NCBI RefSeq assembly: GCF_004010195.1
Contig: NC_057718.1
Coordinates: 67,831,872 to 67,895,871 of the forward strand
Direction: 5' to 3'
Length of the DNA stretch: 64,000 nucleotides
DNA from: Chiloscyllium plagiosum
Lineage: Eukaryota
The notes below the pieces were generated by a model. The model had not been told where the DNA came from. It made no database searches and was given only the letters and a program-made list of their open reading frames with translations. The position numbers and the translations under genes are program-made. Of the stretch, positions 2,792-52,165 are shown piece by piece. The first letter of the stretch is position 1; each line of letters begins with the position of its first letter.

Positions 2792-3057
2792 TTTTAAACA
2801 CTCATGCAAACTCTTAATCTCCTTTTAACAGATTTTGACCACACAGCAACTGCCCCAGGTAACATCTTGGGCAAACTGCCTTGGTTTTCAATCAAAGGAA
2901 AGAATAAGCAATGTTTCCTCAAAAGAAATTCAGAGCATATCTCTCACAAGTAGCATAAATCATAATCAGAATTCGACCCTGAAGCCGACATGATTGAATG
3001 GTTGCAAAAATCAGTTAATTTCAGTACATTTTGTTCGAAGGCAACATTGGCATCACA

Positions 3058-3152
3058 TACAAAAACAGGAATTGCTGGAGAAGCTCAGCAGGTCTGGCAG
3101 AAAATGTAGGAAGAAAGTTAATACTTTGAGTTTGGTGCCTCTTCATCAGAAT
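3058..3152 (-). mobile_element. Short PLE pseudo-LTR remnant (family D) with decayed hammerhead
   Basis: aaaaacaggaattgctggagaagctcagcaggtctggcag...ctcttcatcagaa; related to 46190-46400. Confidence 0.55.
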
Positions 3153-3899: not shown

Positions 3900-4459
3900 G
3901 CAGATATGTTGAATGCATTGCCCTCATGTGCATTCCTGGTCAACTGTTCAAAACATTCAATCAACTTGGTCAGACATGACCTCCCCTCAGCAAAACCCCA
4001 TGCAGACTGTTCTTGATTAAGCCATATATGTACAAGTACATATTAATTCTGTCCCTCAGATTGACTTTCAAAGATTTCCCCGAACCCTGAGATTGGAGTG
4101 ACTGGCCTGTAGTTTCCTGGTTTAATTCCTTGCTCCCTTCTTGAATAATGGTACTCTCCTGTGGCTGGAAAGGAAATGAAAATTGTTGCTAGCATCCCTA
4201 ATATTTCCTTTCTTGCCTCACTCAAAAGCCTGGGAGACATTTCATCCACTCCTGGAGGTCTATCCATTTTTAAGCTTGCCAGACATTTCAGAACATCTCC
4301 TTTGTCTGTACTATATTTTCAAACTATGTCACAGAGCTGCTCCCTTATTTCTAAGCCCACATCATCCCTCACAGTGGCGAACACTGACACAAAGTATTAG
4401 TAATTTAGAACCCTACCTTATATCCACTATCTCCAGACGCAAATTACCACTGTGATCCT

Positions 4460-5912
4460 GTTCGCCGAGCTGGGAATTTGTGTTGCAGACATTTCGTCCC
4501 CTGTCTAAGTGACATCCTCAGTGCTTGGGAGCTTCCTGAGAAGCGCTTCTGTGATCTTTCCTCCGGCATTTGTAGTGGTTTGAATCTGCCACTTCCAGCT
4601 GTCCGCTGCAGTGGCCGGTATATAGGGTCCAGTTCGATGTGCTTATTGATTGAATCTGTGGATGAGTGCCATGCCTCTAGGAATTCCCTGGCTGTTCTCT
4701 CTTTGGCTTGTCCTATAATAGTAGTGTTGTCCCAGTCAAACTCATGTTGCTTGTCATCTGCGTGTGTGACTACTAAGGATAGCTGGTCATGTCGTTTCGT
4801 GGCTAGTTAGTGTTCATGGATGCGGATCGTTAGCTGGCTCCCTGTTTGTCCTATGTAGTGTTTTGTGCAGTCCTTGCATGGGATTTTGTACACTACATTG
4901 GTTTTGCTCATGCTGGGTATCGGGTCCTTCGTTCTGGTGAGTTGTTGTCTGAGAGTGGCTGTTGGTTTGTGTGCTGTTATGAGTCCTAGTGGTCGCAGGT
5001 GGCCCTTTTGAACAGTGTCTTGATGCAACTTCGTTTGTGTGTGTTGGGGTGGTTGCTTTCGTAGTTCAGGACTTGGTCTGTGTGTGTGGCTTTCCTGTAT
5101 ACCTTTGTGGTGAATTCTCCATTCGGTGTTCTCTGTTCCATCACGTCTCGGAATGGGAGTTGGTTATCCTTTTCTTCCTCTCTAGTGAATCGGATTCCTG
5201 TGAGCGCGGCGTTGATGATCCGGTGTGTGTTCTCTATTTCTGTGTTTTTAATGATTACAAAGGTGTCATCCACATATCTGACCCAGAGTTTGGGTTGAAT
5301 TTGCGGTAAGATTGTTTGTTCTAATCTTTGCATTACCGCTTCTGCTTATGAGTCCAGAGATGGGTGAGCCCATGGGTGTGCCATTGATTTGTTCATATAT
5401 TTGGTTGCTGAATGTGAAGTGTGTTGTGAGGCACAGGTCCAGTAGTTTGAGTATGCCGTCTTTGTTGATAGGTTCAACGTCCTGTTGTCTGTTCTTTATG
5501 TCCAGCAGGTTGGCTATTGTTTCTCTGGCTAGGGTTTTGTCGATAGAGGTGAACAGTGCCATTACATTGAATGAGACCATGGTTTCTTCCGTGTCTATGT
5601 GTATAATTCTGATGATGTCCAAGAATTCCTGTGTTGATTGTATAGAGGCATAGCACTCATCCACAGATTCAATCAATAAGCACATCGAACTGGACCCAAT
5701 ATACCGACCACTGCAACGGACAGCTGGAACTGACGACCGGAAGCAGCAGATTCAAACCAGTACAAATGCCGGAGGAAAGATCATAGAAGCGCTTCACAGG
5801 AGGCTCCCAAGCACTGAGGATGTCACCTGGACAGGGGACGAAACATCTGCAACACAAATTCCCAGCTCGGCGAACAGAACCACAACAACGAGCACCCGAG
5901 CTACAAACTTTG
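4460..5912 (-). mobile_element. Poseidon-type Penelope-like retroelement (RT plus GIY-YIG), 5'-truncated with inverted pseudo-LTRs
   Basis: RT motifs (MVSFNVMALFTSI, QINGTPMGSPIS, WVRYVDDTF, VYRKATHT) and GIY-YIG (NVVYKIPCKDCTKHYIGQTG). About 220-bp inverted repeat (4458-4679 versus 5643-5878). 15-bp direct repeat taccactgtgatcct at 4445-4459 and 5913-5927. Confidence 0.93.
5811..5850 (+). ncRNA. Minimal type I hammerhead ribozyme motif in PLE pseudo-LTR (family B)
   Basis: gca CUGAGGA u GUC-a-CC uggaca GG-g-GAC GAAA caUC ugc: both core boxes, stem II and a 3-bp stem I are present. Stem III reads CAUC rather than CGUC (likely CpG decay). Confidence 0.65.
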
Positions 5913-8215: not shown

Positions 8216-8651
8216 TGAAAAAGAAATCAAAAACTCTAAAAAAATGTAAACCTTTACTTTAAAGCTATACTTGTTCCTCTGCTTTGAGGAGAACTGTGTT
8301 TTTATCTTCAGGTGGGCATCACGGGAAGGCAGTTATTTATTGTCTATCCTTAATTCAGAAGGCAAAAGCAGGAAAACTTGGAAAGAAATAAATTAATTGT
8401 ATTGATCTTTGATTTTGAAGTATAAATTGCAAGTCAGACCACTCTGCTTGAATGGATAGTTTCAGGATTTTGACGCAGTGAAACAACAGGAGTATTGTTC
8501 AAAGTTAGGATGATATATAACTTGGAGGAGTTCTTGCAGGTTGTCATGTTCCCATGTAGAATTATAGAATTCCGACAGTGAGTTCAAGGTTGAGATATTT
8601 TCTGCAAAATTTCCAGCCTCGGACCTTCTCTTGTAGCCACTGTAATTAGGT

Positions 8652-8748
8652 CTGGATTAGAGTGGTGCTGGAAAAGCACAGCAGGTCGGGCAACATCCCA
8701 GGAGCAGGAAAATCGATGTTTCGGCCAAAAGCCCTTCATCAGGAATCA
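8652..8748 (-). mobile_element. Mini PLE-derived element (family A) with hammerhead core
   Basis: TSD gtaattaggt at 8642-8651 and 8749-8758. Reverse complement contains CUGAUGA a GGGC uuuu GGCC GAAA caUC. Confidence 0.8.
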
Positions 8749-9035
8749 GTAATTAGGTGGCTGTTCAAGTTCAGTTTCTGAACACTGGTGACCCCTAGCT
8801 TGCTAATATTTGTGATTTCAGAAATGGTTATGCTGTTGAATGTCAAGATCAAATAGTAAGCTACTATCTTGTTGAAAGAAGTCAGTTTTTGATATGGATA
8901 TGGCACGCATGTTGCTTGCCACATAGCAGTCCAAGCCTGAATGTTTTCCACATCTTGCATGTTGAGCCGTAACTGCCTGTTTGCCTGTTGAATTATGAAT
9001 AATAGTTGGCATGTGTGCAGTCATAAGTGAACACT

Positions 9036-9830: not shown

Positions 9831-10624
9831 TGACCTTATGGTGAAGCAGTTAACAATGTTGTGGCAGTGTGTCTTTGGTCTGAATTTATGAGCTTCTCAA
9901 CAGCAGCAACCATCTTCCTTTGTGGTAGGAATGACTACAGCCTTTGAAGGACAATTCAGTTTGCTCTTGCAAGTTGGGGCAGGGCAGATACAGTGGACAC
10001 ACCAATTTGAGCTGTTAGATTGGTCCTGATCATTTTCCATTTACCCTGACATAATGGAGGAGTTGTCAGTGTGAAGATAAGCTTTATCTCTGGAAGGGCT
10101 GTGAACTGTCCATTTCTGTCTTTACTGCCATGACAGATGGATCTATGAGAAGTAAGTTTATAGCCAGAAGGTCCAGTAGGTTTTTTCTTTTGTTGATTCT
10201 CTCACTACTTTTTGCTGGTGAGGTCTTCAGATCTCAGCCAGTTCAGTCAAGTAGTGGTGATACCAACCATTCTTTGTGATGGACTTTGAAGTTCTCCAAC
10301 CATTGTGCATTCTGTGCTTTTACTATTCTCAGTGCTTCATCCAAGTTCTGTTTAACATGGAGGAGCTCTTATTCATCAGCTGAGGCACTGCAGTATAATT
10401 AATCCGATTTCCTTGCTCGTATTTGGCCACATGTGAAAGGCATATTATGGGCTACCAGGGCTAGTCCATCCTGACTCTGTGGCATCTGTGTTGGATCCCT
10501 CTGGGGTGGACCTGGATATGTCCAGGGATAGTGTTGGAGAAGTCTGCAGCATTGGCTGTGAGGTAGGACTTAACTAGAATGACTGACTGTGTTAATTTCT
10601 GTAAGACAGCACTCTCAGTTTTGA

Positions 10625-10719
10625 GCTGAAAATGTATTGCTGGAAAAGCGCAACAGGTCAGGCAGCATCCAAGGAACAGGAGAATCGACGTTTCGGGCAT
10701 AAGCCCATCTTCAGGAAGA
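10625..10719 (-). mobile_element. Mini PLE-derived element (family A) with intact hammerhead core
   Basis: Perfect 15-bp TSD cactctcagttttga at 10610-10624 and 10720-10734. Reverse complement contains CUGAAGA u GGGC uuau GCCC GAAA CGUC. Confidence 0.88.
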
Positions 10720-12199
10720 CACTCTCAGTTTTGACACAAGATGCCAAATATTTATAAGGAGGACTGCAAGGTTGAATGAAAATGATGTGCTTTTTTATGT
10801 TCATTCTTAGTTTGATTGCTGAAGATACCTCTGATTTTTATTGATTTTCATCTTTCAGTAGTGGTTAGATGCAACTGAGTGGCTTCCTAAGCCAATTAAA
10901 AGTCAACTACAGGTACATTGCTGTAGTTCTAGAACTACACGTAGATCAGCCAGGTTAAACATACCTGCCCCTAAACTTTAACATAAATAGCTATAATTTA
11001 TTCTTTGTAGTTCTCAATTTGGGAAAGAAACAAAATTATAATAGAAAAGTTATTGGATCTTTGAATACCAAATGTGATTTAGAGTTGTTTTTTTTTGTAA
11101 TGGCCAATTTGTGATAAGACATTCGATTTCTGTTCCTGTGGACTTTGGAGATTCCATATCGTAACAGCAGGTTTGCTGTGTAGAGCAGGAGACTTATAAA
11201 TACCTACTCTGATGTTAGACCAGATACATAGGGTGGGTTTATACTCTGAGGTGTAACTGAGAGCAGAGATGGGAGGGCCCAGAATTTCCTGGCAACTGTC
11301 TGTCGTAAAGAACCAACATACTCTTCGCTTTTTTTCTGGAGTCTAGACTGGGAGGGAGGGTGGAATCTGGATGTCTACCTACTGTAGGTATATGGAGTCT
11401 ACTAAGAAGCTTATTAAAGCCTTGTTTGTCCAACTGGGATCTTTAGTCAGCAGGTAGGCTCCTGGAGTCATCAGAGAAAGGTGGTGACCTTCTCATGGCC
11501 ATGCAGACTCTTGCATGGTTTTAAAAAGTCTGGGTGTCATTTATAACCATAGGGACCTTCTTTGCTTTTATAAACTGAGAGGGTTGCTACAGCTTGAGAT
11601 GCTGTCATTCCCAAAATGGAAAGGCAGGTGACACTTCCTTGAGTACCACAGATACTACCGCTGGATCTCCAACATTGAAAACTGACCTACTGTCTTTAAT
11701 TGGATAATAAGAAATATGTTTTAAAATCCTGTTTGATGACTATTCCTTAAATGCTCTGAAGTTAAGACCCAACTATGAACTTGCCATCTGGATCCTAACC
11801 CCAAATTACAATCCATGTTTTGGTTTGATAAAAGGGATACTTTATGATCTGCTTGATTGTTTGGAAGGGTATGTTTCCAATCCATTCAGGAATTGATCTA
11901 CAATTGAGTCTTTCTAGATTAGTTGAATTAAGGTTTTGACATTAGAAAGAAAGCAATGTATGTGCAAATTAAACAAGAAATATTTAAATTCCTAGTTTAA
12001 AATGTTTCCATTATTTTGTGAGGTTGCTTGTATATTGCCCTGTACAGATAGATGAAGGCAAGTTGGTGAGCTTAGTGGCAGGTACTAAATGGTGCAAGTT
12101 GTTGAGCTTTCCTCCAGTAAGGAATTTGGGACCATTATGTTACTGTAATTGCTTCTACCAAAGCTCTTGTCATATTTGCCGCATACAGATTAAGATTTT

Positions 12200-13160: not shown

Positions 13161-13751
13161 TAGTGACACAAGTAATTTTCTAACCGAAAGAAAAATATTT
13201 TACAGCTGCTGTCATCAAACCTGTGCATTTCTGGTATCTCTTTTACTAATAGATTAGGGAAGGGGCAGAAAATGAATACATTTTGCTGTTGCTCATAGCA
13301 GATTGTTTAGTCTCAGTAGCAGGTTTATAGTGGCACAATTTTCATTCAGCTGCGAAATAAAGTCATAGAACCCTTTAGTTAGAAGTAGCATCCAAAATGC
13401 ACTTCTGTAATTTTAGGATTTAGTTTGTTTTAAACATTTAGAATAAACATATACAATTAATTTTATTCCAAAGGTACTTGGTCCGTATGTTTAAAATGGA
13501 ATGTCCGCAAAATTTGTGCACGTGTCCATGAATGTTCTGTATCATTCTGCGCACAACAAACTGTACGAAAAGAATATTGCAGTTTTTGAAATGATACAGA
13601 ATAGACAAATTAGAATGATGGAGGGATTGGATCATAAGGATCAATTATAGAAATTAATAATCTTCATTAGACCAGCCTGTCGCTGGCTAATGTGCTTATA
13701 TTATGGGTTTGTGTTGCATAGATTGGAGGATACATATAAAAGAATGCATAT

Positions 13752-18445: not shown

Positions 18446-18838
18446 AAAGAAGTGTTTTTGGTCATTGAACGGACAAAGAAGAGTTAGAGGCAGATATTTT
18501 CCAATTCAGCTTGAGAGTATGTTGTATAAAATCTTCAAAAAGAAATATTGCCATAGATATAAAGTTCACTTTGGGTGGACTCATTAGGATAATTGTTATG
18601 GTTACTGTTCATCTTGGCCTAAGTGCTGGAAATCACTTGTTCATGTCTTGGAACTGTAAGGGAGGACCCTTGCATCATTGTAAAGGGAGGACCCGTTTAA
18701 GACTGGAACAAAGAGTGTTCTACAAATTGCACAACTAGGCAGGTATAGCTTGCATCCATTGGGGTTTCTACAGCATTACCTTTTGTTTGGAGGAATAATG
18801 ACTGAATTTAAAGGTGAGGTTGGTGAATGCAAACTCAA

Positions 18839-18973
18839 ATGTCAACAGTGTGGTGCTGTAAAAGCCCATCAGGTCAGGCAGCATCCGAGGAGCAGGAGAT
18901 TCGACATTTCGGGCATAAATTCTTTATCAGGAACGACTCTGATCTCCAGCGTCTGCAGTCCTCACTTTCTCCC
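18839..18973 (-). mobile_element. Mini PLE-derived element (family A) with inverted terminal extension
   Basis: 13-bp TSD aatgcaaactcaa at 18826-18838 and 18974-18986. Confidence 0.85.
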
Positions 18974-19129
18974 AATGCAAACTCAAGTTCATCCATGCAG
19001 ATAAGGGTGAGTGGATGGAGACTGGTGTGCCTCTTCAGCATTTCAAATTATTCTAGCCCCCACCTTTTCTTTTGGGAAGGCAATAACTGCCAACAATGAT
19101 TTAACTTAAACGATTTACATCTTTGAATC

Positions 19130-19402
19130 TGTCTTTTGTTTTGTTTCTTGTCTTGTTACTATTCCCCTTTGTTTTGCACTATCATTTTTGTCTTTTAAAC
19201 TTTCTTTCCTTTCTCTTTCATTTGTCCCTTCTCCCTGTGTTCCTGCCTCTCCTTCATTTAAACTGGTTGGGAGTGAAATTGCAATGAAAGGTCATTGATC
19301 TGAAATGTTAACGCTGTTTCTCTCTTTGCAGATGGTGCCATACCTGCTGAGCATTTCCTATTTTGATTTCAGGTTTTCAGCATCCATAGTATTTTGTTTT
19401 TT
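19130..19402 (+). mobile_element. Old PLE pseudo-LTR remnant (family D-like)
   Basis: tgaaaggtcattgatctgaaatgttaac..ctctctttgcagatg..cctgctgagcatttcc; related to 46290-46395. Confidence 0.5.
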
Positions 19403-22652: not shown

Positions 22653-22786
22653 AAATTCCCACAACACCACGTTATACTCCAACAGGTTTATTTGGACAAA
22701 AAGCTTTCAGAGTGCTGCTCCTTCATGAGGAAGCAAGGAGCAGTGCTCCGAAAGCTTGTACTTTCAAATAAACCTGTTGGACTATA
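22653..22786. mobile_element. Fold-back mini PLE element (family C)
   Basis: ttatactccaacaggtttatttgg..agctttcagagtgctgctcctt inverted as aaggagcagtgctccgaaagct..caaataaacctgttggactataa. Confidence 0.75.
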
Positions 22787-22915
22787 AGAGTTGAAAAATG
22801 TGGTGCTGGAAAAGCACAGCAGGCCAGGCAGCATCCGAGGAGCAGGAGAATCGACGTTTCGGGCATAAGCCCTTCTTCAGGAAGGGCTTATGCCCGAAAC
22901 GTCGATTCTGCTGCC
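22787..22915 (-). mobile_element. Fold-back mini PLE element (family A) with intact antisense hammerhead core (22853-22880)
   Basis: Perfect 29-bp inverted repeat, 22847-22875 versus 22881-22909. Reverse complement reads CUGAAGA a GGGC uuau GCCC GAAA CGUC. Confidence 0.85.
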
Positions 22916-26700: not shown

Positions 26701-27645
26701 TGGAGGCCTGTGGCCATTGGAGTACCACAAGGGTCGGTGCTGGGTCCTCTACCTTTTGTCATTTATATAAATGATCTGGATGCGGGCATAAGAGGTACAG
26801 ATAGTAAGTTTGCAGATGACACCAAAATTGGAGGTGTAGTGGACAGCGAAGAGGGTTACCTCCGATTACAACAGCATCTTGACCAGATGGGCCAATGGGT
26901 GCTGCATTTTGAGAAAGCAAATCTTAGCAGGACTTATACACTTAATGGTAAGATCCTAGGGAGTATTGCTGAACAAAGAGACCTTGGAGTGCAGGTTCAT
27001 AGCTACTTGAAAGTGGAGTCGCAGGTAGATAGGATAGTGAAGAAGGCGTTTGGCATGCTTTCCCCTATTGGTCAAAGTATTGAGTACAAGAGTTGGGAGG
27101 TCATGTTGCGGCTGTACAGGGCATTGGTTAGGCCACTGTTGGAATATTGCGTGCAATTCTGGTTTAGGGTGAGAGGGGAAAGCTATAAAAGAGACCTAAG
27201 GGGCAACTTTTTCACACAAAGGGTGGTGCATGTATGGAATGATCTGCCAGAGGATGTGGTGGAGACTGGTACAATTGCAACATTTAAAAGGCATCTGGAT
27301 GCGTACGTGAATAGGAAGGGTTTGGAGGGATATGTGCCGGGTGCTGACAGGTTGGACTAGATTGGGTTGGGATATCTATTTGACATGGATGGGTTGGACC
27401 TAAGGGTCTGTTTCCATGCTGTACATCTCTATGACTCTAAATGGCCGTGTTGAGTTGGTCACCAGAGACAGACGGGTCCAGGAAGGGGAGGGAGGTGTCA
27501 GAGATGGTCCATGTGAACTTGAGGTCAGGGTGGAAGCTATTGGTGAAGTTGATGAGCTGTTCAACCTCCTCATGGGAGCACGAGGTGGCGCCAATGCAGT
27601 CATCAATGTAGCGCAGGAAAAGGTGGAGATGGTGGCGTTGCTAGT
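23800..27645 (-). mobile_element. Neptune-like PLE (family A), 23800-24965 plus 27440-27645, split by a CR1 insertion
   Basis: ORFs 24354-24776 (CMKYKTCTH, HLIYCIRC) and 24055-24270 (ANHFNSPSH..EEECLIFCLGTLQ). The sequence resumes at about 27440 with RT-region sequence. Confidence 0.82.
24968..27438 (+). mobile_element. Relatively young CR1 LINE, most of ORF2 (APE endonuclease plus RT), disrupted
   Basis: ORFs 25159-25440 (GLYYRSPN, VMVGDFNFP), 25690-26652 and 26674-27360 ([17 protein letters not shown]). Stops, frameshifts and an internal deletion near 27160. Tail ctctatgactcta. Confidence 0.95.
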
Positions 27646-28097: not shown

Positions 28098-29883
28098 GTC
28101 AGTCTTCACAGTGGAAGACATGAGTGGTATCCCAAAACTTCGAGAGTGAGGGGCAGAGCTGAGTATGGTGGCCATCACCAAGGAGAAGGTGCTAGAAAAA
28201 CTGAAAGGTATGAAAGTGGATAAATCACCTGGACCAGGTGGACTACACCCTAGAGTTCTAAGGGAGATAGCTGAAGAAATAGTGGAGGCATTAGTGGAGA
28301 TAGTGAATTTTCAGGATTCGCTAGAGTCCGGGAGGGTCCCATAGGACTGGAAAATCAAACGTGACACCCCTGTTTAAAAAGAGAGTAAGGCAAAAGATGG
28401 AAAATTACAGATAGATTGGCCTGACTTCCATTGTGAAGGATGAAATTTCTGAAATACTTGAAAGTGTATAGTAAAATAGGGCAAAGTCAGCATGGTTTCA
28501 TCAAGGGGAGGCCATGCCTGACAAACCTGCTCAAATTGTGTGAGGAAGTAACGAGCAGGTTAGACTAAGGAGAGCCAATGCATGTTATCTACCTGGACTT
28601 AGAGACCACCTTTGACAAGGTGCCGCATAGCAGGCTACTGAGTAAGATAACAGCTCACGATGTTAGAGGCAAGATGCTCGCATGGATAGAAGTTTGGCTG
28701 TCTGGCAGAAAGCAGAGAGTGGGTGTAAAAAAACTCTTTCTCAGGATGGCAGCCAATGGTGGTGTTCCGCAAGGCTCAGTTTTGAGACCACACCTTTTCA
28801 CTTTATGCATTAATAAGCTAGATGAAGGAACTGAGGGCATTCTGGCTAAGTTTGCAGATGATACAAAGATAGGTAGAGGGAAAGGTAGCATTGAGGCGGG
28901 GAGGCTGCAGAAGGATTTGGACAGGTTAGGAGAGTGGGCAAAAAAGTGGCAGAAGGAGTACAATGTGGCAAAGTATGAGGTTGTGGAATTTGGTAGGAGG
29001 AATAGAGGCATGGATTATTCACTAAATAGGGAGAAAATTCAGAAGTTTGAAGTGCAAAGAGATTTGGGAGTTCTAGTGCAGGATTCTCTCAGGAAAACCT
29101 GCAGGTTGAGTCAGTTGTTAGGTGAAAAATGTGATGCTGGAAAAACACAGCAGGCCAGGCAGCATCCGAGGAGCAGCTGAATCAATGTTTTGGGCATAAG
29201 CCCTTCTTCCAACCTCACTTTCTCCTGAGTGAGTTGTGAGGAAAGCAAATGCAATGATGCCATTTATTTTGAGCGGACTTGAATATAAAAGCAGGGATGT
29301 ACTTATGAGGCTCTGTAAGGCTCTGGTCAGGCCACATTTGGAAAATTCTGGGCGGTTTTGCACCTCATATCTCAGGAAGGATATACTGGCCTTGGAGCAT
29401 GCTCAGAGGAGGTTCACAAGAATTGTCCCAAAAATGAAAAGCTTAACATATGAGGAACATTTGGGGACTCTGGGTCTATACTGAATTGAGTTCAGAAGGA
29501 TAAGGAGGGATCTAATTTGAAACATAGATAATACTGAATAGCCTGTACAGAGTGGATGTTCGGAAGATGTTTCCATTGATAGGAGAGACTCGGACTCGAG
29601 GGCGCAGCCTTAGAATAAAGGGAAGACCTTTTAGAATGGAGATAAGGAGAAACTTCTTCAGTTAGAGTGTGGTGAATCTATGGAATTCATTGCTACATAA
29701 GCCTGTGGAGGCTAGGTCATTGAGTATAGTTAAGACTGTGATAGGTTCTTGAGCATCAAGGGGTTCAAGGGACAGGTAGAAAGTGGGAGAATGGGTTTGA
29801 GAAACTTATCAGCCATGATTGAATTGCAGGTTCAATGGGCTGAATGGCCTAATTTCTGCTCCACTGTCTTATGGTCTTATGAT
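28098..29883 (+). mobile_element. CR1 LINE (second subfamily), RT and 3' UTR
   Basis: ORF 28578-29180 ([22 protein letters not shown]) and 29236-29484. Tail tcttatggtcttatg. Confidence 0.9.
29123..29225 (-). mobile_element. Mini PLE-derived element (family A) inserted in a CR1
   Basis: 16-bp TSD with 2 mismatches: tgagtcagttgttagg (29107-29122) and tgagtgagttgtgagg (29226-29241). Confidence 0.8.
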
Positions 29884-31050
29884 TTAAGGCAGTCTTCGAG
29901 ATACCTAACAACACAAAATCACCAAGCAGAAACTGATAGCCAAGTTCGGTACCCATGGGGATGGCCTTCACTGCGCTCTTAGGTTCATGGCACATTTGGG
30001 TTCATGATGCATGTAACCCCATCATACTGTTCTATGTTTGGATAATCTTCCTTACTGTTCTGTTTTGACACTATCACCTTGATAACTTGTTATGATTGCT
30101 CTACCTTAATTAGTTTGTACAGTTTTGGATCATTTGTGACTTTGGTTAGACCCTTGATTAGCTTCCACAACATGTACACAGAAGTGTCTGATATCCCAGA
30201 TAAATTCAAATTGCAAATAGAGTTATGTTTCTCAGACCTCAAAATCTGTTATACTTATGTTATTCCAGCTATTTGGTTTGTCTCTAGCACCATCTTATGA
30301 TGGATTATTTTGTAGTTATCTGTCTACCTTAATTAATCAGATCATACGTCATCCCTTCACTTGCTGTTCAGCTGTTGACACTTTACTCTCACTGTTTGAC
30401 ACTTTTGATCACCTGCAAAGATTTATTCTTCAGCCTGTCTACGCTCCACTCACACCATCTGTACTATATTTGACACTGAATTACCTGGAATTATTTTGCA
30501 ATTATCTCTCCATTTATAAATTCTGTGCCTGTGTTCTTCCCTCCACTTCACCTGACAAAAGAGCAGCACTCCAAAAGCTTGTGATTTCAAATAAAACTGT
30601 TGGACTATAACCTGTTGTAATGTGACTTCTGATTCTCAATGCACTAGTCTAAGATCCTAGATAATGCAACTTGGGGGCACAACACTGGTGAATTGGCAGC
30701 ATTAACAAACAGCTTCACCAGAGTGTTGTATTTGGGTGATACCTTTGAATTGGGGTTTATTGTAACGTATGAGTTAAGACCTAGAATAATTAGAGCATAT
30801 TCTGAATTTGTCCTGCTTTGGCAGAACAAAATCATTTGCAGCCCTAGCTGGAGAGACCACCGTTTGGGTGAAGATTTATTTTCTTTTCAGCTGTTATATA
30901 CTTAAACATCATTAGCCAACTTGTTACCAGAACATCTCCCATATTCAAACTTAAAGCCCATGCTCCAGCAGCGTAGTCTCATCAGCATTGCTGTTAACTG
31001 CAAGTCAGAGGGTTATTCCAGGAGATGAATAGAATTAAAAGGCTGATATT

Positions 31051-32200
31051 ATGGCAGGTAGCTTCCCCAAGATGTACAGAGAAGTGGCTGATGTCCAAGA
31101 TAAATTTAAGCTGCAAATGGAGTTATGCTTCTCAGACCTCAAAGTTGTAGCAGTGAGAAATTGGTAATTAAACTAACAGTTGCTGCAGGAAATGACTGGC
31201 TGCACAGGATGTACATCTGTAGTTTCTCAGACTTTGAACAGAAGGGTCCTGCAAGATTATGACTGAGGACTGCAGATGCTGGAAATCAGAGTCTAGATTA
31301 GAGTGGTTCTGGAAAAGCACAACAGGTCAGGCAGCTTCCGAGGAGCAGGAAAATCGATATTTCGGGCAAAAGCCCTTCATCAGGAAATTCCTGATTTTCC
31401 TGCTCCTCAGATGCTGCCTGACCTGCTGTGCTTTTCCAGCACCACTCCTGTAGGATTATGGTCAGTATCAGAAATATGCTTGATGTGGAAGCAAATTTTA
31501 GAAAATGTTGCCTAGAACTCGTGCAATATAGGCAGAAAATTAATGAATGCGTAGATGATTTTGTTATCTCATGTAGCAAGACATAAAAGAACACAATATC
31601 ATGAATGGAGAACTCTCAGAATGCATTATGGAGTCTGTCATTACATCTACTGACATAGAGGTACCTGTAGAAAGATGTCTAGGAAAAACCAAGGGTAAAG
31701 AGAAGATGCTACAAGATGAATGTAAAAACAAAGCCATTATATCTGTTAGCCTTGGAGTCTGTAATGCCTATTGGTGTGATATGCAGGATAGCCAAACAAA
31801 ATGAGGTGAGTAGTAATTGCAGGTCTTTCTCAAACTGCAGAAATGCCTGATGTGTGCAAGGCCTGTGTATTTAGAGGACACAAGGCGAATCGCATAAAGT
31901 CCATTAGCAAGAATATAGGGAGAAGGAACTGCAGATAATGTAATAGCAAAAATACAGCAACCAGAGGTGAAAGCTGGAAAAATCTACCACAGAAGCGCCA
32001 AGCTATCCATGATATGGTAGAGCACTTGACCAAACTGGATGAGCTGGATCAAAGTGTAGATACTTTAAACACACAGCTGTTTCATATCATCACCCTCGTG
32101 GACAGGTTAATTCTGTAATGTTTATTACCTTTGCAACACTGCAGATTGTTTGCCCAATTAAGGTTCGGAGATATCCATGAAGAATTTTTCATTAAGGTGA
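31051..32200 (+). mobile_element. Decayed Gypsy-type gag remnant
   Basis: MAGSFPKMYREVADVQDKFKLQMELCFSDLK, ELSECIMESVITST, and a degenerate Zn knuckle CKACVFRGH at 31855-31881. Confidence 0.5.
31262..31445. mobile_element. Fold-back mini PLE element (family A)
   Basis: Inverted arms. TSD tcctgcaagattatg (31247-31261) and tcctgtaggattatg (31446-31460). Confidence 0.85.
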
Positions 32201-37002: not shown

Positions 37003-37190
37003 GGCGAAAGTGAGGACTGCAGATGCTGGAGATTAGAGTCGAGAGTGTGGTGCTGGAGAATCGTAGTTTCGGGCAAAAACCCTTCATCAGGAAGCCCTTC
37101 CTGATGAACAGCTTTTTCCTGAAATGTTGAATCTCCTGCACCTCGGATGCTGCCTGACTTGCTGTGCTTTTCCAGCACCACATGCTCGAC
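37003..37190. mobile_element. Fold-back mini PLE element (family A)
   Basis: ttcatcaggaag ... cttcctgatgaa inverted centre with inverted arms (gtggtgctgga / tccagcaccac). Confidence 0.8.
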
Positions 37191-37204
37191 TATGACCATA
37201 TACT

Positions 37205-38503: not shown

Positions 38504-38697
38504 AAGTCAGAAGTCACATGGCACCAGATTATAGTCTAACAGGTTTATTTGAATCACAAGCTTTCGGAGCACTGCTCCTTGTCAGGTGAAGTCTCTGAAA
38601 GCCTGTGATTTCAAATAAACCTGTAGGACTATAACCTGGAGTTGTGTGACTTCTGACTTTGTCCATCCCAGTCCAACACCGGCATCTCCACATCACA
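38504..38697. mobile_element. Fold-back mini PLE element (family C)
   Basis: Inverted arms (aagtcagaagtcac..ttatagtc.aacaggtttatttgaa / ttcaaataaacctgtaggactataa..gtgacttctgactt). TSD aatcagaca at 38495-38503 and 38698-38706. Confidence 0.8.
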
Positions 38698-38789: not shown

Positions 38790-41000
38790 ATGGTGTCACC
38801 CACGATAGAAAGTGAGGCAAGAGAGATGGGAGAGTGGCATTTTAGCTGTACTTAGGGAGGATGCTCCTGGAAATACATCCAGGGAAGTTATTTGGGTGGA
38901 ACTGAGAAATAAGAAAGGGATGATCACCTTATTGGGATTGTATCATAGAGCCCTTTAAAGCCAGTGGGAAATTGAGAAATTTGTAAGGAGATCTCAGCTA
39001 TCTGTAAGAATAATAGGGTGGTTATGGTAGGGGATTTTAACTTTCCAAGCATAGACTGGGACAGCCATAGTTGTGGTTCTTTTTGCCGAGCTGGCAATTT
39101 GTGTCGCAGACATTTCGTCCCCTGTCTAGGTGATATCCTCAGTGCTTGGGAGCCTCCTGTGAAGCGCTTCTGTGATGTTTCCTCCGGCATTTATAGGGGT
39201 TTGAATCTGCCGCTTCCGGCAGTTCCAGCTGTCCGCTGCAGTGGTCGGTATATTGGGTCCAGGTCGATGTGCTTATTGATTGAATCTGTGGATGAATGCC
39301 ATGCCTCTAGGAATTCCCTGGCTGTTCTCTGTTTGACTTGTCCTATAATAGTAGAGTTGTCCCAGTGCGTGTGTGGCTACTAAGGATAGCTGGTCGTGTC
39401 GTTGCGTGGCTAGTTAGTGTTCATGGATGCGGATCGTTAGCTGTCTTCCTGTTAGTCACCTTGGGGCCAGCAGCCATAGTTCTATTGGTTTTAAAATAGT
39501 GATGGAAAAGGATAGACCAGATCTAAAATGTTGAAGTTCTACATTGGAGGAAGGCTAATTTTGCCGGTATTAGGCAAGAGCTTTTAAAAGCTGACTGGGT
39601 GCAGATGTTCACAGGTAAAATGACGGCTGGAAAATGGGAAGCCTTCAGAAATGAGATAATGAGAATCCAGAGATTCTCTTTAGGGTGAAAGGAAAGGCTG
39701 GTAGGTGTAGGGAATGCTGGATGACTAGAGGAATTGAGGGTTTGGTTAAGAAGAAGAAGGAAGCATATCTCGGGTATGGACAGGATAGATCGAGTGAATC
39801 CTTAGAGTATTCAGGCAGTAGGAGTATACTTAAGAGGGAAATCAGGAGGGCAAAAAGGAACATGAGATAGCTTTGGCAAATAGGGTTAAGGAGAATCAAA
39901 AGGACTTTTACAAACTCATTAAGGATCAAAGAGGAACTAAGGAGAGAATAAGGCCCCTCAAAGATCAGCAAGGCGGCCTTTGTGTGGAACCGCAAGAGAT
40001 AGGGGAGATACTAAACAAATACTTTGCATCAGTGGTCTGAGACCAGTGGAGTGCCACAAGGATCGGTGCTGAGTTCACTACTTTTCATCATTTATATAAA
40101 TGATTTGGATGTGAGCATAAGAGGTATAGTTAGTAAGTTTGCAGATGACACCAAAATTGGAGGTTAGTGGACGGCGAAGAAGGTTACCTCAGAGTACAAT
40201 GGGATCTTGATCAGATGGGCCAATGAGCTGAGGAGTGGCAGATGGAGTTTAATTAAATGCGAGATATTGCATTTTGGGAAAGCAAATCTTAGCAGGATTT
40301 GTACACTTAATGGTCAGGTCCTGGAGAGTGTTGCTGAACAGAGAGACCTTGGAGTGCAGGTTCATAGTTCCTTGAAAGTAGAGTCGCAGGTAGATAGGAT
40401 AGTGAAAAAGGTGTTTGGTATGTTTTCCTCTATTGATCAGAATATTGAGTTTAGGAGTTGGGAGGTCATGTTTCATCTATACAGGACGTTAGTTAGGCCA
40501 CTTTTGGAATATTGCATGCCATTCTAGTCTCCTTCCTATTCGAAGGATGTTGTGAAATTTGAAAGGGTTCAGAAAAGATTTACAAGGCTGTTGCCAGGGT
40601 TAGAGGATTTGAGCTATAGGGAGAGTTTGAACAGGCTAGGGCTGTTTTCCCTGGATCATCGGGGGCTGAGGGGTGACCTTATAAAATCATGAGGGGTATG
40701 GATAGGATAAGTGGACAAAATCTTTTCTGTGGGGTGGGGGAGTCCAGAATTAGAGGGCATAGGTTTTGGGTGAGGGGAAAGCTATAAAAGAGACCTAAGG
40801 GGCAACCTTTTCACAGAAAGGATGGTGCATGTATGGAATGATCTGCCAGAGGAAGTGGTGGAGGCTGGTACAATTGCAACATTTAAAAGGCATCTGGGTG
40901 GGTACATGAATAGGAAGGGTTTGGAGGGATATAGGCCGGGTGCTGGCAAGTGGGACTAGATTAGGTTGGGATATCTGGCCGACATGGACGAGTTGGACCG
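38790..41000 (+). mobile_element. CR1 LINE with internal deletions and a nested PLE
   Basis: Same subfamily as 24968-27438 (VMVGDFNFP, MKGKAGR, RPLLEYC). The central RT part is deleted near 40035. Confidence 0.9.
39069..39455 (-). mobile_element. Poseidon-type PLE 3' fragment with pseudo-LTR hammerhead (family B)
   Basis: Highly similar to 4458-4845. Confidence 0.88.
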
Positions 41001-46189: not shown

Positions 46190-46400
46190 GCAAAACAAAA
46201 ACATAAATTGCTGGAAAAACTCAGCAAGTCTGACAACATTTGTGGACAGAAAGCAGAGTTGACATTTTGGGGCCATTGACCTTGAAAACTGGACCGAAAA
46301 CGTTAACTCTGCTTTCTGTTCACAGGTGTTACCAGACCTGCTGAGTTTTTTTAGCAATTTCTGTTTTTGTTTCTGATTTCCAGCATCCATAGTTCTTTTT
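46190..46400. mobile_element. Fold-back mini PLE element (family D)
   Basis: aaattgctggaaaaactcagcaagtctg..cagaaagcagagttgac inverted as gttaactctgctttctg..ccagacctgctgagttttt..gcaattt. Confidence 0.75.
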
Positions 46401-47326
46401 TTTTAGAGAGGCGGGTGATATAGGTATGGAATCAGGGAGAAGCACTCTGATACGATTAAAGAAATTAGCATAGACAGAGAAGAAGTTCTGACAAACTGAA
46501 AAGTAGGCATGTCTAGGGCCAGATGAAATGTATCCCAGGTTGTTGAGTGAGACAAAGGAGAAAATAGCAGGGGCATTTGCAAAAATTTTCAGTTCCTCTT
46601 TGGTCACAGGAAAGGACCTAGAGGACACCCAGTGTAGTACCGTACTTCCAGAAGGAAGCAAGAAATCAACCAGGAAACTACAATACAATCACTGTAACCT
46701 TGGTGGTGGGGAAACTATTATAAGCAATTCTGAGGGACACAATTAATCTGTATTTGGAGAGACTGGGATTAATCAAGAACAGTCAACATGCTTTTGTTAA
46801 GGGGAGGTCACGTCTGACCAACTTGATTGAATTTTTTGAAGAGGTGACCAGAGGAGGGCAATGTGTTTGATGTGTTTCACTTGGACTTCAGCAAGGCTTT
46901 TGATAAGATCCTGAATGGGAAACTGATAGCAAAAGTAAGAACCTATGAGATCCAAGGAAATTTGGTAAATTTAATTCATAATTGATTTGCACGAAGCAGA
47001 TGATGATGATGGTTGAGAGCTGTTTTTGTGTCCAGTGAGAAATGTTAGTGTTGGGATGCTTGCTGTTTGTGTTGTGTATAAATGATTTAGACTTGAATCT
47101 AGGTGAGTTCACAGGTGATACAAAAATTGACGGGGTGCTTAATAATGAGGATAGCGTTAGACCACAAGAGGATCTAGATGGGCCGATCAGTGACAATTTG
47201 AATTCAATCTGGATAAATGTGATAAGATGCACGTTGGCAGGACAAACAAAGCAAGAGAGTATGTGATGACAGTAGTACCCTAGGGAGAACAGAAGAACAG
47301 TGATTAAGAAGGCATATGGTGCACAC

Positions 47327-47425
47327 ATTCTTGATGAAGGGCGTATGCCCGAAATGTCAATTCTCCTGTTCTTCGGATGCTGCCTGACCTGCTGTGCTTT
47401 TCCAGCACTACACTCTTCGACTCTG
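47327..47425 (+). mobile_element. Mini PLE-derived element (family A), sense strand, hammerhead core mutated
   Basis: uUGAUGA a GGGC guau GCCC GAAA uGUC: C3 is changed to U. Confidence 0.8.
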
Positions 47426-47699
47426 ACATATGATATACTTGCCTTTATTAGCCTAAGCATAGAGTTTAGGAACAGGAAGGATATGTTGGAACGGTATAAA
47501 ACATTGGTTACGGCATAGCTAGAGTAATTTTATCAGTTGTGGAATCCACATTTGCAAGAGAGTTGTGATAGCACTGGTGAGAGTGCATCTTGAACAGTCG
47601 GCAGGTTTTAACCATGGACCATGCCATCCTCCTTCAAAGCCCCTGCTTGATCTCCAGTTGCAAGAGCCTGACCATGTCTCATTCCATTCTTACCTATCT

Positions 47700-48590: not shown

Positions 48591-50380
48591 ATAATGTACT
48601 CACATTGTCAAACTGGGAAGTGGTGATGGGTTTGGCAGTTACAATGGTATCGGTCAGCAGCTGGTTCCATAGGTAGAGCAGGGCTTTCAAGTCTGAGAAC
48701 AGCTTATAGCCAGTCTGCAGTAATAGAGGGGGAATACCTTGCTATCTTTAAAAATACTCTTCCATCAAGGACAGATGTGGACTTAAACTCAGTTGGGCTG
48801 AGATTCCCACGTGCTTGCATGGTCTTCATAGAAATGGCCAATTAATTGGAGGTACCTTTTGAAGCATCCATAAGTTTACAACCTCATGAGGGCTGAAGTC
48901 AATGTTTGTCATGTGGAAGGCAACCTTTCTTTCCTCTGTGGCCCTATCATTGTAAGACAGTTTAATCCTGCAGAGCCCTAGTCTACTAACAGAAAGCTAC
49001 CTCCATATGGCTTTTGGGCTTGGTACACAGTACATAGAGGGAGCCTTCTCAACTGGGTAGGTAGCACTTGCATTTGATAAGCTGTATCCAGAAAGATCTC
49101 CTGAAGCCAGGAAAATATAAGACCACTGACCTGACACTGACTTTTTGTATTTTCTTCCTTGTCCCATTCCTCTGTCCCCTCTTCTCCATGGATCTCTGTA
49201 AATGTCTGTGCAGAGTTTCAAAAATTGCAGGACAACAAACCTTTTCTGTGATGCTGGTTGGAGTTGCAACTTGGAAACCTGTATAATTGGAAATTACCCT
49301 GTATTTCTGATTCAGTCAGTGTAAACAACATATGAATCGTTTGCAATAAATCATGCTGGAAGTACTTGGTTCCAAGTACTTCCAATTCTAAGAAGCAGGA
49401 TGCAGGGAGACTGAATTGCCAAGGAAATTAGATTGAGTGATTGTAATATCATTGTGTTCAAATTAAAGCATTTTGAGGATATACACATAACCCAGAAATA
49501 TGAATCAGCTTTTTGCATTTAACTCTTTGCTTGCTTGCAATTTTGCACCAAATGATAAGCTTTTAGTTGACTCGGTATAGCAATTGAAATTGTATAACAA
49601 CCCAGGCAAAAGTATTTAATTCTGCCTTCGCCACTCACAAGAACAATCACAAAATCGAGAGTGGTGGGAGTGTAGTATTTTTAAAGATAAAAAGGGATCA
49701 TCAGTACGACAGAGCTTCAGGTTTGTAAAGAGGATACCTTTTGACTTTTCCCCCCAACAGAATTAGAGTTGTTTGATAATATGACTTGTTTCCCGAGCAG
49801 CTGAGCATTTGCAGTTTTTATTTCTACATTTATGTAGAGTCTTTGTCGTGGTCAAACATACCACAGCAACTTCAGAAATAATTTTTAAACAAATATTGGC
49901 ACTAACCAACTGATGGAGATATATTAGGGGAAATAACCCAAAGCTTAGACAGAAAGGTAAGCTTTAAGGAATAAATTAGGGAGGTGTAGCCAGAGAATGC
50001 CAGAACTTTGAACTTACAGTTTTGGCAGCAAAGCCATATTTGCCAACAGTGCTGTTAAATTCAGTAATAGATATGATGCCAGAATTAAATGAGTACAGAG
50101 CTTAAGGGCTGGCGAAGGCCGCAGAGATCGGAAGAGTGAATTCATGGAGGAATTTGAAAGCAATGGTAGAGAAGGTAGAAATAGGTGATAACAGCATGTA
50201 AGTTAACTTTTCTCCACTGTTGAAACTATCATTTCAAATCTGATTTGAGTTTTATTGAGGTTGAAGTGCAGAATCTGTTAAATATTTGGTCATCTCTTAG
50301 TTGGGGAATGGTAGCATAGTTGAAAATGTGTTGCTGGAAAAGCGCAGCACGTCAGGCAGCATCCAAGGAGCAGGAGAATC

Positions 50381-50408
50381 GACGTTTCGGGCATGAGCCC
50401 TTCTTCAG
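50381..50408 (-). ncRNA. Minimal hammerhead ribozyme core (family A)
   Basis: CUGAAGA a GGGC ucau GCCC GAAA CGUC; self-complementary ACGU stem III, weak stem I. Confidence 0.7.
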
Positions 50409-51616
50409 GAATGAGGAAAGTGTGCCAAGCAGGCTAAGATAAAAGGTAGGGAGGAGGGACTTGGGGGAGGGGTGTTGGAAATGCAATAGGTGGGAGGAGG
50501 TTAAGGTGAGGGTGATAGGCCGGATTGGGGTGGGGGCGGAGAGGTCAGGAAGAAGATTGCAGGTTAGGAAGGTGGTGCTGAGTTCGAGGGTTGGGATTGA
50601 GACAAGGTGGGGGGAGGGGAAATGAGGAAACTGGAGAAATCTGAGTTCATCCCTTGTGGTTGGAGGGTTCCTAGGCGGAAGTTGAGGCACTCTTCCTCCA
50701 GCCGTCATGTTGCTATGGTCTGGCGATGGAGGGGTCCAAGGACCTGCATGTCCTTGGTGAGTGGGAGGGGGAGTTGAAGTGTTGAGCCACGTGGTGGTTG
50801 GGTTGGTTGGTCTCAGAGGTGTTCTCTGAAACGTTCCGCACGTAGGCGGCCTGTCTCCCCAATATAGAGGAGGCACATCCGGTGCAGCGGATGCAGTAAA
50901 TGTTGTGTGTGGAGGTGCAGGTGAATTTGTGGCGGATATGAAAAGATGCCTTGGAGGCAAGTAAGGGGGGAGGTGTGGGCGCAAGTTTTGCATTTCTTGC
51001 GGTTGCAGGGGAAGGTGCCGGGAGTGGAGGTTGGGTTGGTGGGGGGTGTGGACCTGACGAGGGAGTCACAGAGGGAGTGGTCTTTTCGGAACGCTGATAG
51101 GGGAGGGGAGGGAAATCTATCCCTGGTGGTGGGGTCCGTTTGGAGGTTTGCGGAAATGACAACGGATGATACGATGTATATGGAGGTTGGTGGGGTGGTA
51201 GGTGAGGAGCAGTGGGGTTCTGTCCTGGTGGCGATTGGAGGGGCGAGGCTCAAGGGCGGAGGAGCGGGAAGTGGAGGAGATGCGGTGGACAGCATCATCG
51301 ACCACGTCTTGGGGGAAATTGCGGCCTTTGAAGAAGGAGGCCATCTAGGTTGTTCGGTATTGGAACTGGTCCTCCTGGGAGCAGATGCGGCGGAGACGAA
51401 GGAATTGGGAATATGGGATGGCGTTTTTACAGGGGGCAGGGTGGGAGGAGGTGTAGTCTAGGTAGCTGTGGGAGTCGGTCGGTTAGGGGTGAACTCCAGA
51501 TTTCTTCAGTTTCCTCATTTCCCCTCCCCCTACTTTGTCTCAGTCCCAACCCTCGAACTCAGCACCGCCTTCCTAACCTGCAATCTTCTTCCTGACCTCT
51601 CCCCCCCCACCCCCCC

Positions 51617-51782
51617 NNNNNNNNNNNNNNNNNNNNNNNNNNNNNNNNNNNNNNNNNNNNNNNNNNNNNNNNNNNNNNNNNNNNNNNNNNNNNNNNNNNN
51701 NNNNNNNNNNNNNNNNNNNNNNNNNNNNNNNNNNNNNNNNNNNNNNNNNNNNNNNNNNNNNNNNNNNNNNNNNNNNNNNNNN
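51617..51782. other. Assembly gap (166 N)
   Basis: Run of n inside the inverted pseudo-LTR. Confidence 1.
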
Positions 51783-51857
51783 CCTGACCTGCTGCGCTTT
51801 TCCAGCACCACATTTTCAACTCTGATCTCCAGCATCTGCAGTCCTCACTTTCTTCAG

Positions 51858-52165
51858 TGGTAGCATAGTGGTTAGCACTGCTGCCTCACAGCACCAGGGA
51901 CCCGGGTTTGATTCCAACCTTGGGTGACTATTTGTGTGGCGTTTCATGTTCTTCCCCTGGTTGCATGGGTTTTTGCTAGATGCTCTGGTTTTCTTCCACA
52001 GTCCAAAGATGTCCAGGTTAGGTTGAATGGCCTTGCTAAATTGCCCTGTGATGTTTACGGAGAAGGGCACGGGGGCTGCATCTGGGTTGAATGCTCTCTG
52101 GAGTCGGTGCAGATTTGATGGGCCAAATGACCTTGTTCCACACTGTAGGGATTTGATGAGATGAG
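51858..52165 (+). mobile_element. HE1-type V-SINE whose head (about 50303-50320) was split by the PLE insertion
   Basis: tggtagcatagtggttagcactgctgcctcacagc..ccgggtttgattcc, V-domain and CR1-like tail. Confidence 0.85.

Follow-up and report, generated by a model that had tools for sequence, protein, structure and literature searches.

A short hammerhead-bearing terminal-repeat insert in Chiloscyllium plagiosum as a probable run-off copy of a Neptune-type PLE

Introduction

Solo hammerheads of the minimal type I form were found by descriptors and reported by Cervera and De la Pena 2014 (PMC4209133), mostly as single dispersed motifs with some opposite-strand pairs, and were ascribed to truncated Penelope-like elements (PLEs). 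As monomers, published minimal hammerheads showed no cleavage, and their cleavage as dimers or in the presence of protein was weak (PMC4209133, PMC11167929). The usual PLE layout comprises a pseudo-LTR (pLTR), an optional tail of 30-40 bp at one end and an adjacent inverted, 5'-truncated copy, and rotifer solo pLTRs that have no target-site duplication (TSD) were ascribed to recombination or deletion (PMC3846280, PMC8557442). In two other PLEs, the transcription start site (TSS) and an internal promoter lie within the pLTR (PMC2377424, PMC8557442). In the anole PLE, Anolis Poseidon PAc (Frangieh et al. 2024, PMC11167929), reverse transcription begins internally, at a pair of neighboring sites on either side of the tail, and requires the first 172 nt of the ORF, downstream of the start sites; 5' truncation of the template shortens the product, and uncut RNA is the main template. 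Non-LTR retrozymes are defined by head-to-tail hammerhead tandems and circular RNA (PMC7229834, bioRxiv 10.64898/2026.07.22.740005).

The 95-bp insert described here shares with the hammerheads of PMC4209133 the minimal type I form with an extra base after position 9, the G10.1-C11.1 pair, the palindromic 15.2/16.2 positions and the lack of helix III, but its helix II has 4 bp, compared with 7-8 in the schistosome families. The covered parts of that paper hold no mapped insertion ends or TSDs, whereas a two-base 5' hotspot was mapped here. Like published PLE insertions (PMC3846280, PMC8557442), the inserts of this locus have TSDs, head-to-head arms and a tail on one arm; their TSDs measure 12-16 bp versus 8-10 in the rotifer examples, and, unlike those insertions, the units are only 95-190 bp long with a fixed 5' start. 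The likeness to PAc (PMC11167929) lies in two 3' end points bounding the tail and, on the reading that we prefer, in a hammerhead uncut in the template and a product bounded by the template 5' end. PAc differs in being of Poseidon type, in that the text of that paper reports no genomic 5' hotspot, and in its ATT nick preference, which is not evident here. With non-LTR retrozymes, the inserts share a type I hammerhead, the lack of an ORF, a relation to pLTRs and an occurrence as dispersed monomers (PMC7229834, bioRxiv 10.64898/2026.07.22.740005). Solo minimal hammerheads of truncated PLEs, opposite-strand pairs, tails and inverted pLTRs are already in print.

Results

A 95-bp insert with a perfect target-site duplication

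The window is the whole 64,000-nt stretch of Chiloscyllium plagiosum DNA that was analyzed, and coordinates are positions in it. The focal insert has the following parts.

10610 to 10624, plus strand: target-site duplication, left copy, 15 bp, identical to the right copy
10625 to 10719, minus strand: tailless pseudo-LTR end of a family-A PLE, a 95-bp insert (by sequence comparison)
10687 to 10714, minus strand: minimal type I hammerhead core (strict pattern)
10715 to 10719, minus strand: 5' end of the focal insert, with parent homology from 10717 (+2, counted from the parent's initiator-like A)
10720 to 10734, plus strand: target-site duplication, right copy, 15 bp, identical to the left copy

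The initial annotation had described a stand-alone 95-bp insert with a perfect 15-bp TSD and had traced it to the pseudo-LTR of a PLE, and both statements were borne out. The 15-mer that bounds 10625-10719 occurs only twice in the 64-kb window, and the longest word common to the 30-nt flanks of about 2,980 random 95-nt spans was 10. Over 93 nt the insert shares 92.5% identity with the terminus of its presumptive parent, the long copy at 50321. On the 3' side it stops (10625) at the inner end point that lacks a tail, as do 50321 and the arms 22787L and 29123L, and at its 5' end the two bases 10718-10719 have no parental match. The last 2 nt of the 10610-10624 duplication also match the parent's tail-side continuation, possibly as a priming microhomology. 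No tRNA, 5S or 7SL head was seen in the 95 bp (Rfam), and a 23-nt motif had 0 matches in the metagenome, genome and viral contigs searched. Judged from sequence comparison, the insert arose by retrotransposition as a 95-base copy of a Neptune-type PLE's terminal repeat; taken singly, it is an ordinary and probably inert PLE stub.

The parent element

The long copy that served as reference has the following parts.

50309 to 51869, no single strand: long family-A insertion, reference parent, with a 12-bp TSD (50309-50320/51858-51869)
50321 to about 51484, minus strand: parent minus arm, with a tailless pLTR, a 3' UTR and a broken RT-thumb/linker/GIY-YIG coding part
50409 to 50415, minus strand: initiator-like motif in the parent, with A 50412 as +1 and T 50411 as +2
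51485 to 51857, plus strand: parent plus arm with tail, with an N gap inside the inverted arm

The coding part of the parent matched P0001, a PLE polyprotein annotated from Chiloscyllium punctatum, with an E value of 2e-27 among 8,000 scored candidates, and the match of the parent arm with this polyprotein reached 8e-80 by tblastn. A Cys (CxxC) linker is present in both the 50321 arm and P0001, and the 50321 arm has GIY-YIG-like motifs. Because a CxxC linker between RT and nuclease marks the Neptune/Nematis type (PMC8557442), the element can be placed in that type. The sequence features point to an endonuclease-positive PLE of presumptive Neptune type, the linker being shared by Neptune and Nematis, as the parent of the 10625 insert; the linkage of PLE RT and GIY-YIG is known from the contiguous 50321 coding part, not from the stub. 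The hammerhead lies on the same strand as the parent ORF. Eight translated pieces, the frameshifted parent pieces included, gave no PLE domain in Pfam, and the only RVT_1 match fell on the unrelated 25636 ORF. The RNA reads included 347 with tail-like loose ends at 50321. The long PLE was inserted at the edge of a dispersed repeat of ∼300 bp (50309-52151; copies at 13749, 23379, 33819, and 37241), presumably SINE-like, and isolated PLE RT-like fragments occur on the minus strand at 27440-27625 and 18691-18801.

The hammerhead core

An intact minimal type I hammerhead core had been proposed on the minus strand and was confirmed: the strict pattern matched three times in the window (10687, 22853, and 50381), compared with 0.00 matches expected by chance. 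From 10714 to 10687 the core reads CUGAAGA-U-GGGC/UUAU/GCCC-GAAACGUC, the parts being CUGAAGA (10714-10708), the extra U (10707), helix II (10706-10695) and GAAACGUC (10694-10687), and from the standard hammerhead rule we take the predicted cut to lie between 10687 and 10686. Both core boxes are intact in 3 of the 12 family-A arms scored (10625, 22787L, and 50321). The 10625 copy has the min-HHR features, namely the CUGANGA and GAAA-NUH boxes, helix II and the palindromic 15.2/16.2 positions; its helix I consists of 2 adjacent pairs only, below the min-HHR criterion of 4-5 bp, and that of the parent has 3 pairs with a U-U mismatch. A monomer folded into the hammerhead shape is less stable than the best fold by 5.7 kcal/mol (by 11 when 12 nt of flank are included), helix III depends on a partner, with an ACGU duplex worth only −1.7 kcal/mol, and the stub folds no better than shuffled sequences (z −1.49). 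Self-cleavage by the predicted hammerhead of this copy is doubtful on these models.

No hammerhead family was matched by Rfam at E ≤ 1 across the whole window, in agreement with the descriptor-based discovery of minimal forms (PMC4209133). Six matches were obtained, all to sub-threshold microRNA models, and four of them fall on PLE hairpins (including 22852-22906, 31321-31425, and 46195-46370); PLE hairpin inserts inside host transcripts would give long hairpin RNA. A relaxed hammerhead descriptor proved overly permissive and passed over the strict matches, and it served solely as a pointer to family D (see below). At 10625-10717, 22788-22883, 29123-29209, and 50319-50412, the CUGA box was predicted to base-pair with the tailless 3' end, and such pairing would be expected to close the stub and sequester the core. 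It was dropped as a mechanism on finding it in 4 of 11 arms, all of the young subfamily, with the older arms lacking it.

Other inserts in the window

The remaining family-A inserts were delimited as follows.

8640 to 8758, minus strand: second single-arm 95-bp stub, of an older subfamily, starting at +1, with a 12-bp TSD
18826 to 18988, no single strand: two-arm insert, a tailless arm from +2 head-to-head with a tail-only arm, with a 15-bp TSD
22788 to 22914, no single strand: tailless arm from +2 with an intact core and a short inverted arm, abutting a family-B hairpin
29107 to 29241, no single strand: two-arm insert, a tailless arm from +8 and 14 nt of tail end, with a 16-bp TSD
31247 to 31460, no single strand: two-arm insert, a tailed arm from +2 and a tailless arm that resumes at the cleavage site, with a 15-bp TSD
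37006 to 37193, no single strand: two-arm insert, both arms from +2, one of them tailed, with no clear TSD
47311 to 47437, plus strand: single-arm stub starting at about +1, with a possible decayed TSD

Similar inserts with their own TSDs had been listed at 8652, 18839, 29123, 31262, and 38504. All five duplications hold, at 12-16 bp with one or two mismatches (length/mismatches: 8640, 12 bp/1; 18826, 15/1; 29107, 16/2; 31247, 15/2; 38492, 12/1). At 47327, which had been described as having no clear TSD, a decayed 12-bp duplication with 3 mismatches may be present, and none was found around 22788-22914. The likeness of the named sites to the focal stub stood in part: 8652, and probably 47327, are single-arm, but the seven others (18839, 29123, 31262, 37003, 22787, 38504, and 46190) are two-arm, head-to-head inserts. 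Two of these, 38504 and 46190, do bear hammerheads but belong to other families (B and C, respectively).

The tail, read by eye, is on exactly one arm in all seven two-arm inserts whose outer ends can both be seen (18839, 29123, 31262, 37003, 50319, 38504 of family B, and 46190 of family C); 22787 and 22654, each with one end lost, were left out of this count. Tailed arms run 35-40 nt past the inner tailless end point, and at 18839 the two arms together tile the stretch from +2 to the tail end once.

Hammerhead stubs or hairpins of family B occupy 22654-22787, 30545-30632, and 38504-38694, and the parent ORF of this family was not seen in the window; the 38504 copy is flanked by a 12-bp TSD and bears its tail on a single arm. 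The start of two family-B arms falls on one common base, 7 nt before the CUGA box. The family-A hairpin within 22654-22914 directly abuts a family-B hairpin and seems to truncate its right arm, an arrangement that may reflect a nested insertion plus deletion. Family C is older (3052-3130, 19290-19400, and 46193-46395) and has the stub or hairpin layout and a tail resembling that of family A; its copies start near their CUGA box. PLE-like copies of family D, which we take to be of Poseidon type, lie at 4451-4914, 5269-5886, and 39072-39457 and have a longer helix II, with a PLE RT-like fragment at 5269-5751. In contrast to families A-C, all three family-D copies run well past their hammerhead.

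Kinship of short and long copies

The initial annotation had suggested a non-autonomous ribozyme-SINE population, and this was not borne out. When 11 family-A arms were placed in a tree built on 97 columns, a weak one with 6 of 8 inner branches open, the focal copy was sister to the long copy 50321 with support of 89/91; it is 76-87% identical to the seven other short arms, compared with 92.5% to 50321. The short or long state changes three times on this tree, and a single clade of the eight short arms was rejected (p-AU 0.0118, 97 columns). The case for a separate ribozyme-SINE or retrozyme is weak on account of these two results, and the ends of the copies are off the cleavage site. The pair 8652 and 31262L has no long relative in the window, and masters within subfamilies are compatible with the 11-row, 97-column tree; a separate mobile family of short copies is weakly supported. 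The alternative of ordinary truncation came out divided, in that short copies are interspersed with long ones but the breakpoints are far from random.

A two-base hotspot for 5' ends

Clustering of family-A ends a few nucleotides upstream of the CUGA box had also been noted and was upheld. Among the 12 family-A arms that reach +2, eight stop at +1/+2 (10625, 8652, 18839L, 22787L, 31262L, 37003L, 37003R, and 47327) and four run on; six of the eight start at +2, not +1. Under a constant hazard, with one hazard fitted to 17 family-A arms whose lengths were assigned by hand, P was 9e-15, or 6e-12 after multiplication by 600 for the post hoc choice of site. The hotspot lies 4 nt before the CUGA box and 31-32 nt before the cleavage site, and the short copies begin at the equivalents of parent positions 50412/50411, which are also the first bases of helix I. 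A strong RT stop at the ribozyme had been offered as an explanation. There is indeed a stop, but its position, at an initiator-like A, is 5' of the entire hammerhead fold, and for that reason a template 5' end fits better than a structural pause.

Three collections, X9 (DNA contigs, one related species), X2, and X21 (RNA reads), were mapped to 50293-51492 at 82% likeness; the counts for X9 and X2 are incomplete and hence lower bounds, and depth is not copy number. In X9 the two largest piles of loose ends among those listed were at 50412 (at least 512) and 50411 (at least 417); these loose ends had a median of 255 letters and an agreement of 0.30-0.31, which indicates unrelated flanks. X21 had 213 loose ends at 50412 (agreement 0.4) and a depth of 1508 in 50373-50412 versus 254 in the next bin. 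Over the same bin edge, depth, which is not a measure of copy number, fell from 12.4M to 3.3M in X9. In X2 the step was only from 3.0M to 1.7M, and piles at 50411/50412 were absent among the rows listed. Part of the drop in depth is due to subfamilies with diverging bodies (159 reads at 50403). Most of the mapped X21 reads (92%) continue into unlike sequence, that is, host transcripts, and this collection, being polyA single-cell, is unable to show RNA starts; no pile of starts or ends was seen among the rows listed.

The initiator consensus is YYANWYY, and +1 is the A of a match to it in the parent; all three long copies match there, and the consensus matches 1.3% of positions. A DPE is expected at +28 to +32, and the parent gave no fit to its consensus there. 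The loose consensus at 50412 begins with C in X9 (G on the RNA strand) and with A in X21, so that an untemplated, cap-derived G before +1 is hinted at by X9 and not by X21. In the literature covered, we found no earlier description of a base-precise 5' hotspot at helix I.

Discussion

We consider that the stub probably arose as a run-off product, by internal initiation of the RT near the 5' end of the PLE mRNA and copying to the transcription start. The PLE enzyme would nick the target, and its RT would begin internally, about 95 bases from the 5' end of the element's own RNA, and would leave the template at that fixed end, which is the predicted transcription start; the hotspot would then be the capped RNA 5' end. 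The hammerhead would be carried along uncut and would not set the end. The main 5' end lies upstream of the cut site, implying an uncut template, like that of the anole PLE. With the mRNA starting in the upstream pLTR, the first RT start would fall about 95 nt from the cap, giving the length of the stub. Longer copies may be made from tandem or read-through transcripts when the RT starts at a repeat further downstream, and a tailless stub, lacking the downstream binding region, would probably be a dead end.

In support of run-off we count the TSD, the identity to the parent end, the strand of the ORF, the two-base 5' hotspot and the tail on one arm, together with the initiator-like match in all three long copies, the common start base of two family-B arms and the position of the TSS within the pLTR of two other PLEs (PMC2377424, PMC8557442). 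Retroviral minus-strand strong-stop DNA is likewise a short cDNA, begun internally and extended as far as the RNA 5' end; unlike it, the run-off product here would be target-primed and integrated. In L1 twin priming, two primers give rise to an inverted arm, and the two arms at 18839 resemble this, as an analogy of mechanism only. The two tail end points correspond to the two internal RT starts of the anole PLE (PMC11167929), but those RT-start data come from the Poseidon element PAc and the focal element is of Neptune type. Counted against run-off are the six of eight arms at +2, the split hint of a cap G, the passage of all three family-D copies beyond the hammerhead, the weak X2 step, the commonness of YYANWYY, the lack of a DPE fit and the X21 reads at 50412 that enter flanks. 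The Drosophila virilis element also speaks against it, its TSS not being at the hammerhead and an intron ending at helix I (PMC4209133, PMC2377424). A fuller proposal would hold that Neptune PLEs of cartilaginous fish start transcription at the first base of helix I, that most of what they integrate is a run-off cDNA of 95-130 nt resembling strong-stop DNA, that the stubs map the TSS and two RT starts to the base, that both target strands prime on the RNA at these two starts and so yield one-tailed hairpins, and that pseudo-LTRs are regenerated in this way; this combination is tentative and less likely than not.

The 5' end could instead have been made on a longer RNA, by pausing or fold-back of the RT after the hammerhead or by a GIY-YIG cut at ATT, which we regard as unlikely. 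Head-to-head junctions do occur at the hotspot, both in the window copies and in X9 inversion joints that link 50411/50412 to 50367-50378, and no RNA-start pile was listed for X21, a polyA single-cell run unable to show starts. A hairpin would be expected to stall an RT at its 3' base; the stop observed is 5' of the whole fold, and the stub folds no better than shuffles. For the anole nuclease, 5'-ATT-3' is the preferred sequence at the ORF-pLTR junction of that element (PMC11167929), and the sequence from +1 also opens with ATT, but ATT was near only 3 of 16 inferred nick sites, compared with a background of 14%, and a nick preference for ATT was rejected as support.

It is improbable that the short copies descend from dedicated non-autonomous masters, that is, solo pLTRs with their own internal promoter, at least one per subfamily, mobilized in trans like SINEs. 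The uniform 95 bp at 10625 and 8652, each with its own TSD, would suit such masters, as would the pLTR depth several-fold above body depth in X9 and X21, the absence from the window of a long relative of 8652 and 31262L, and the action of rotifer pLTRs in trans (PMC3846280). They are opposed by the rejection of one short-copy clade, by the long copy being the nearest relative of the focal copy, and by the stubs themselves, which when tailless lack the downstream RNA needed by the anole enzyme and have mostly lost the +1 base.

A retrozyme, in which the hammerhead cuts the RNA and cleaved or circularized monomers serve as templates, is very unlikely. The core boxes of the 10625 copy are intact, a minor set of junctions falls 2 nt beyond the cut site, at 50378, and the cut site is also where arm 31262R resumes; but the main 5' end precedes that site by 31-32 nt, helix I and the monomer fold are as poor as described above, and no head-to-tail tandem was seen among the family-A matches in the window, which leaves the inserts outside the definition of a retrozyme. 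The minor recurrent inversion junction 0-2 nt past the cut site was observed at 50378-50380 and 31387-31400. The 50378-50380 joints could be copies of cleaved RNA or could reflect microhomology between the two helix I strands, and those at 50378 could also be a deletion within the palindrome. Random 5' truncation, which is typical of PLEs (PMC8557442) and fits the interspersion of short and long arms on the tree, or a recombination-derived solo repeat hardly deserves credence, as the two-base hotspot contradicts truncation, if it holds on the full assembly, and recombination between repeats leaves the inverted tail-only arms unexplained.

Run-off from an internal start bears on how PLE pseudo-LTRs, tails and inverted arms form and on the role of the hammerhead (PMC2377424, PMC8557442). 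Read in this way, the stubs would be an abundant, base-precise product that predicts the transcription start and in whose template the ribozyme stays uncut, and with run-off no new non-autonomous family would be needed to account for solo hammerheads in such huge numbers.
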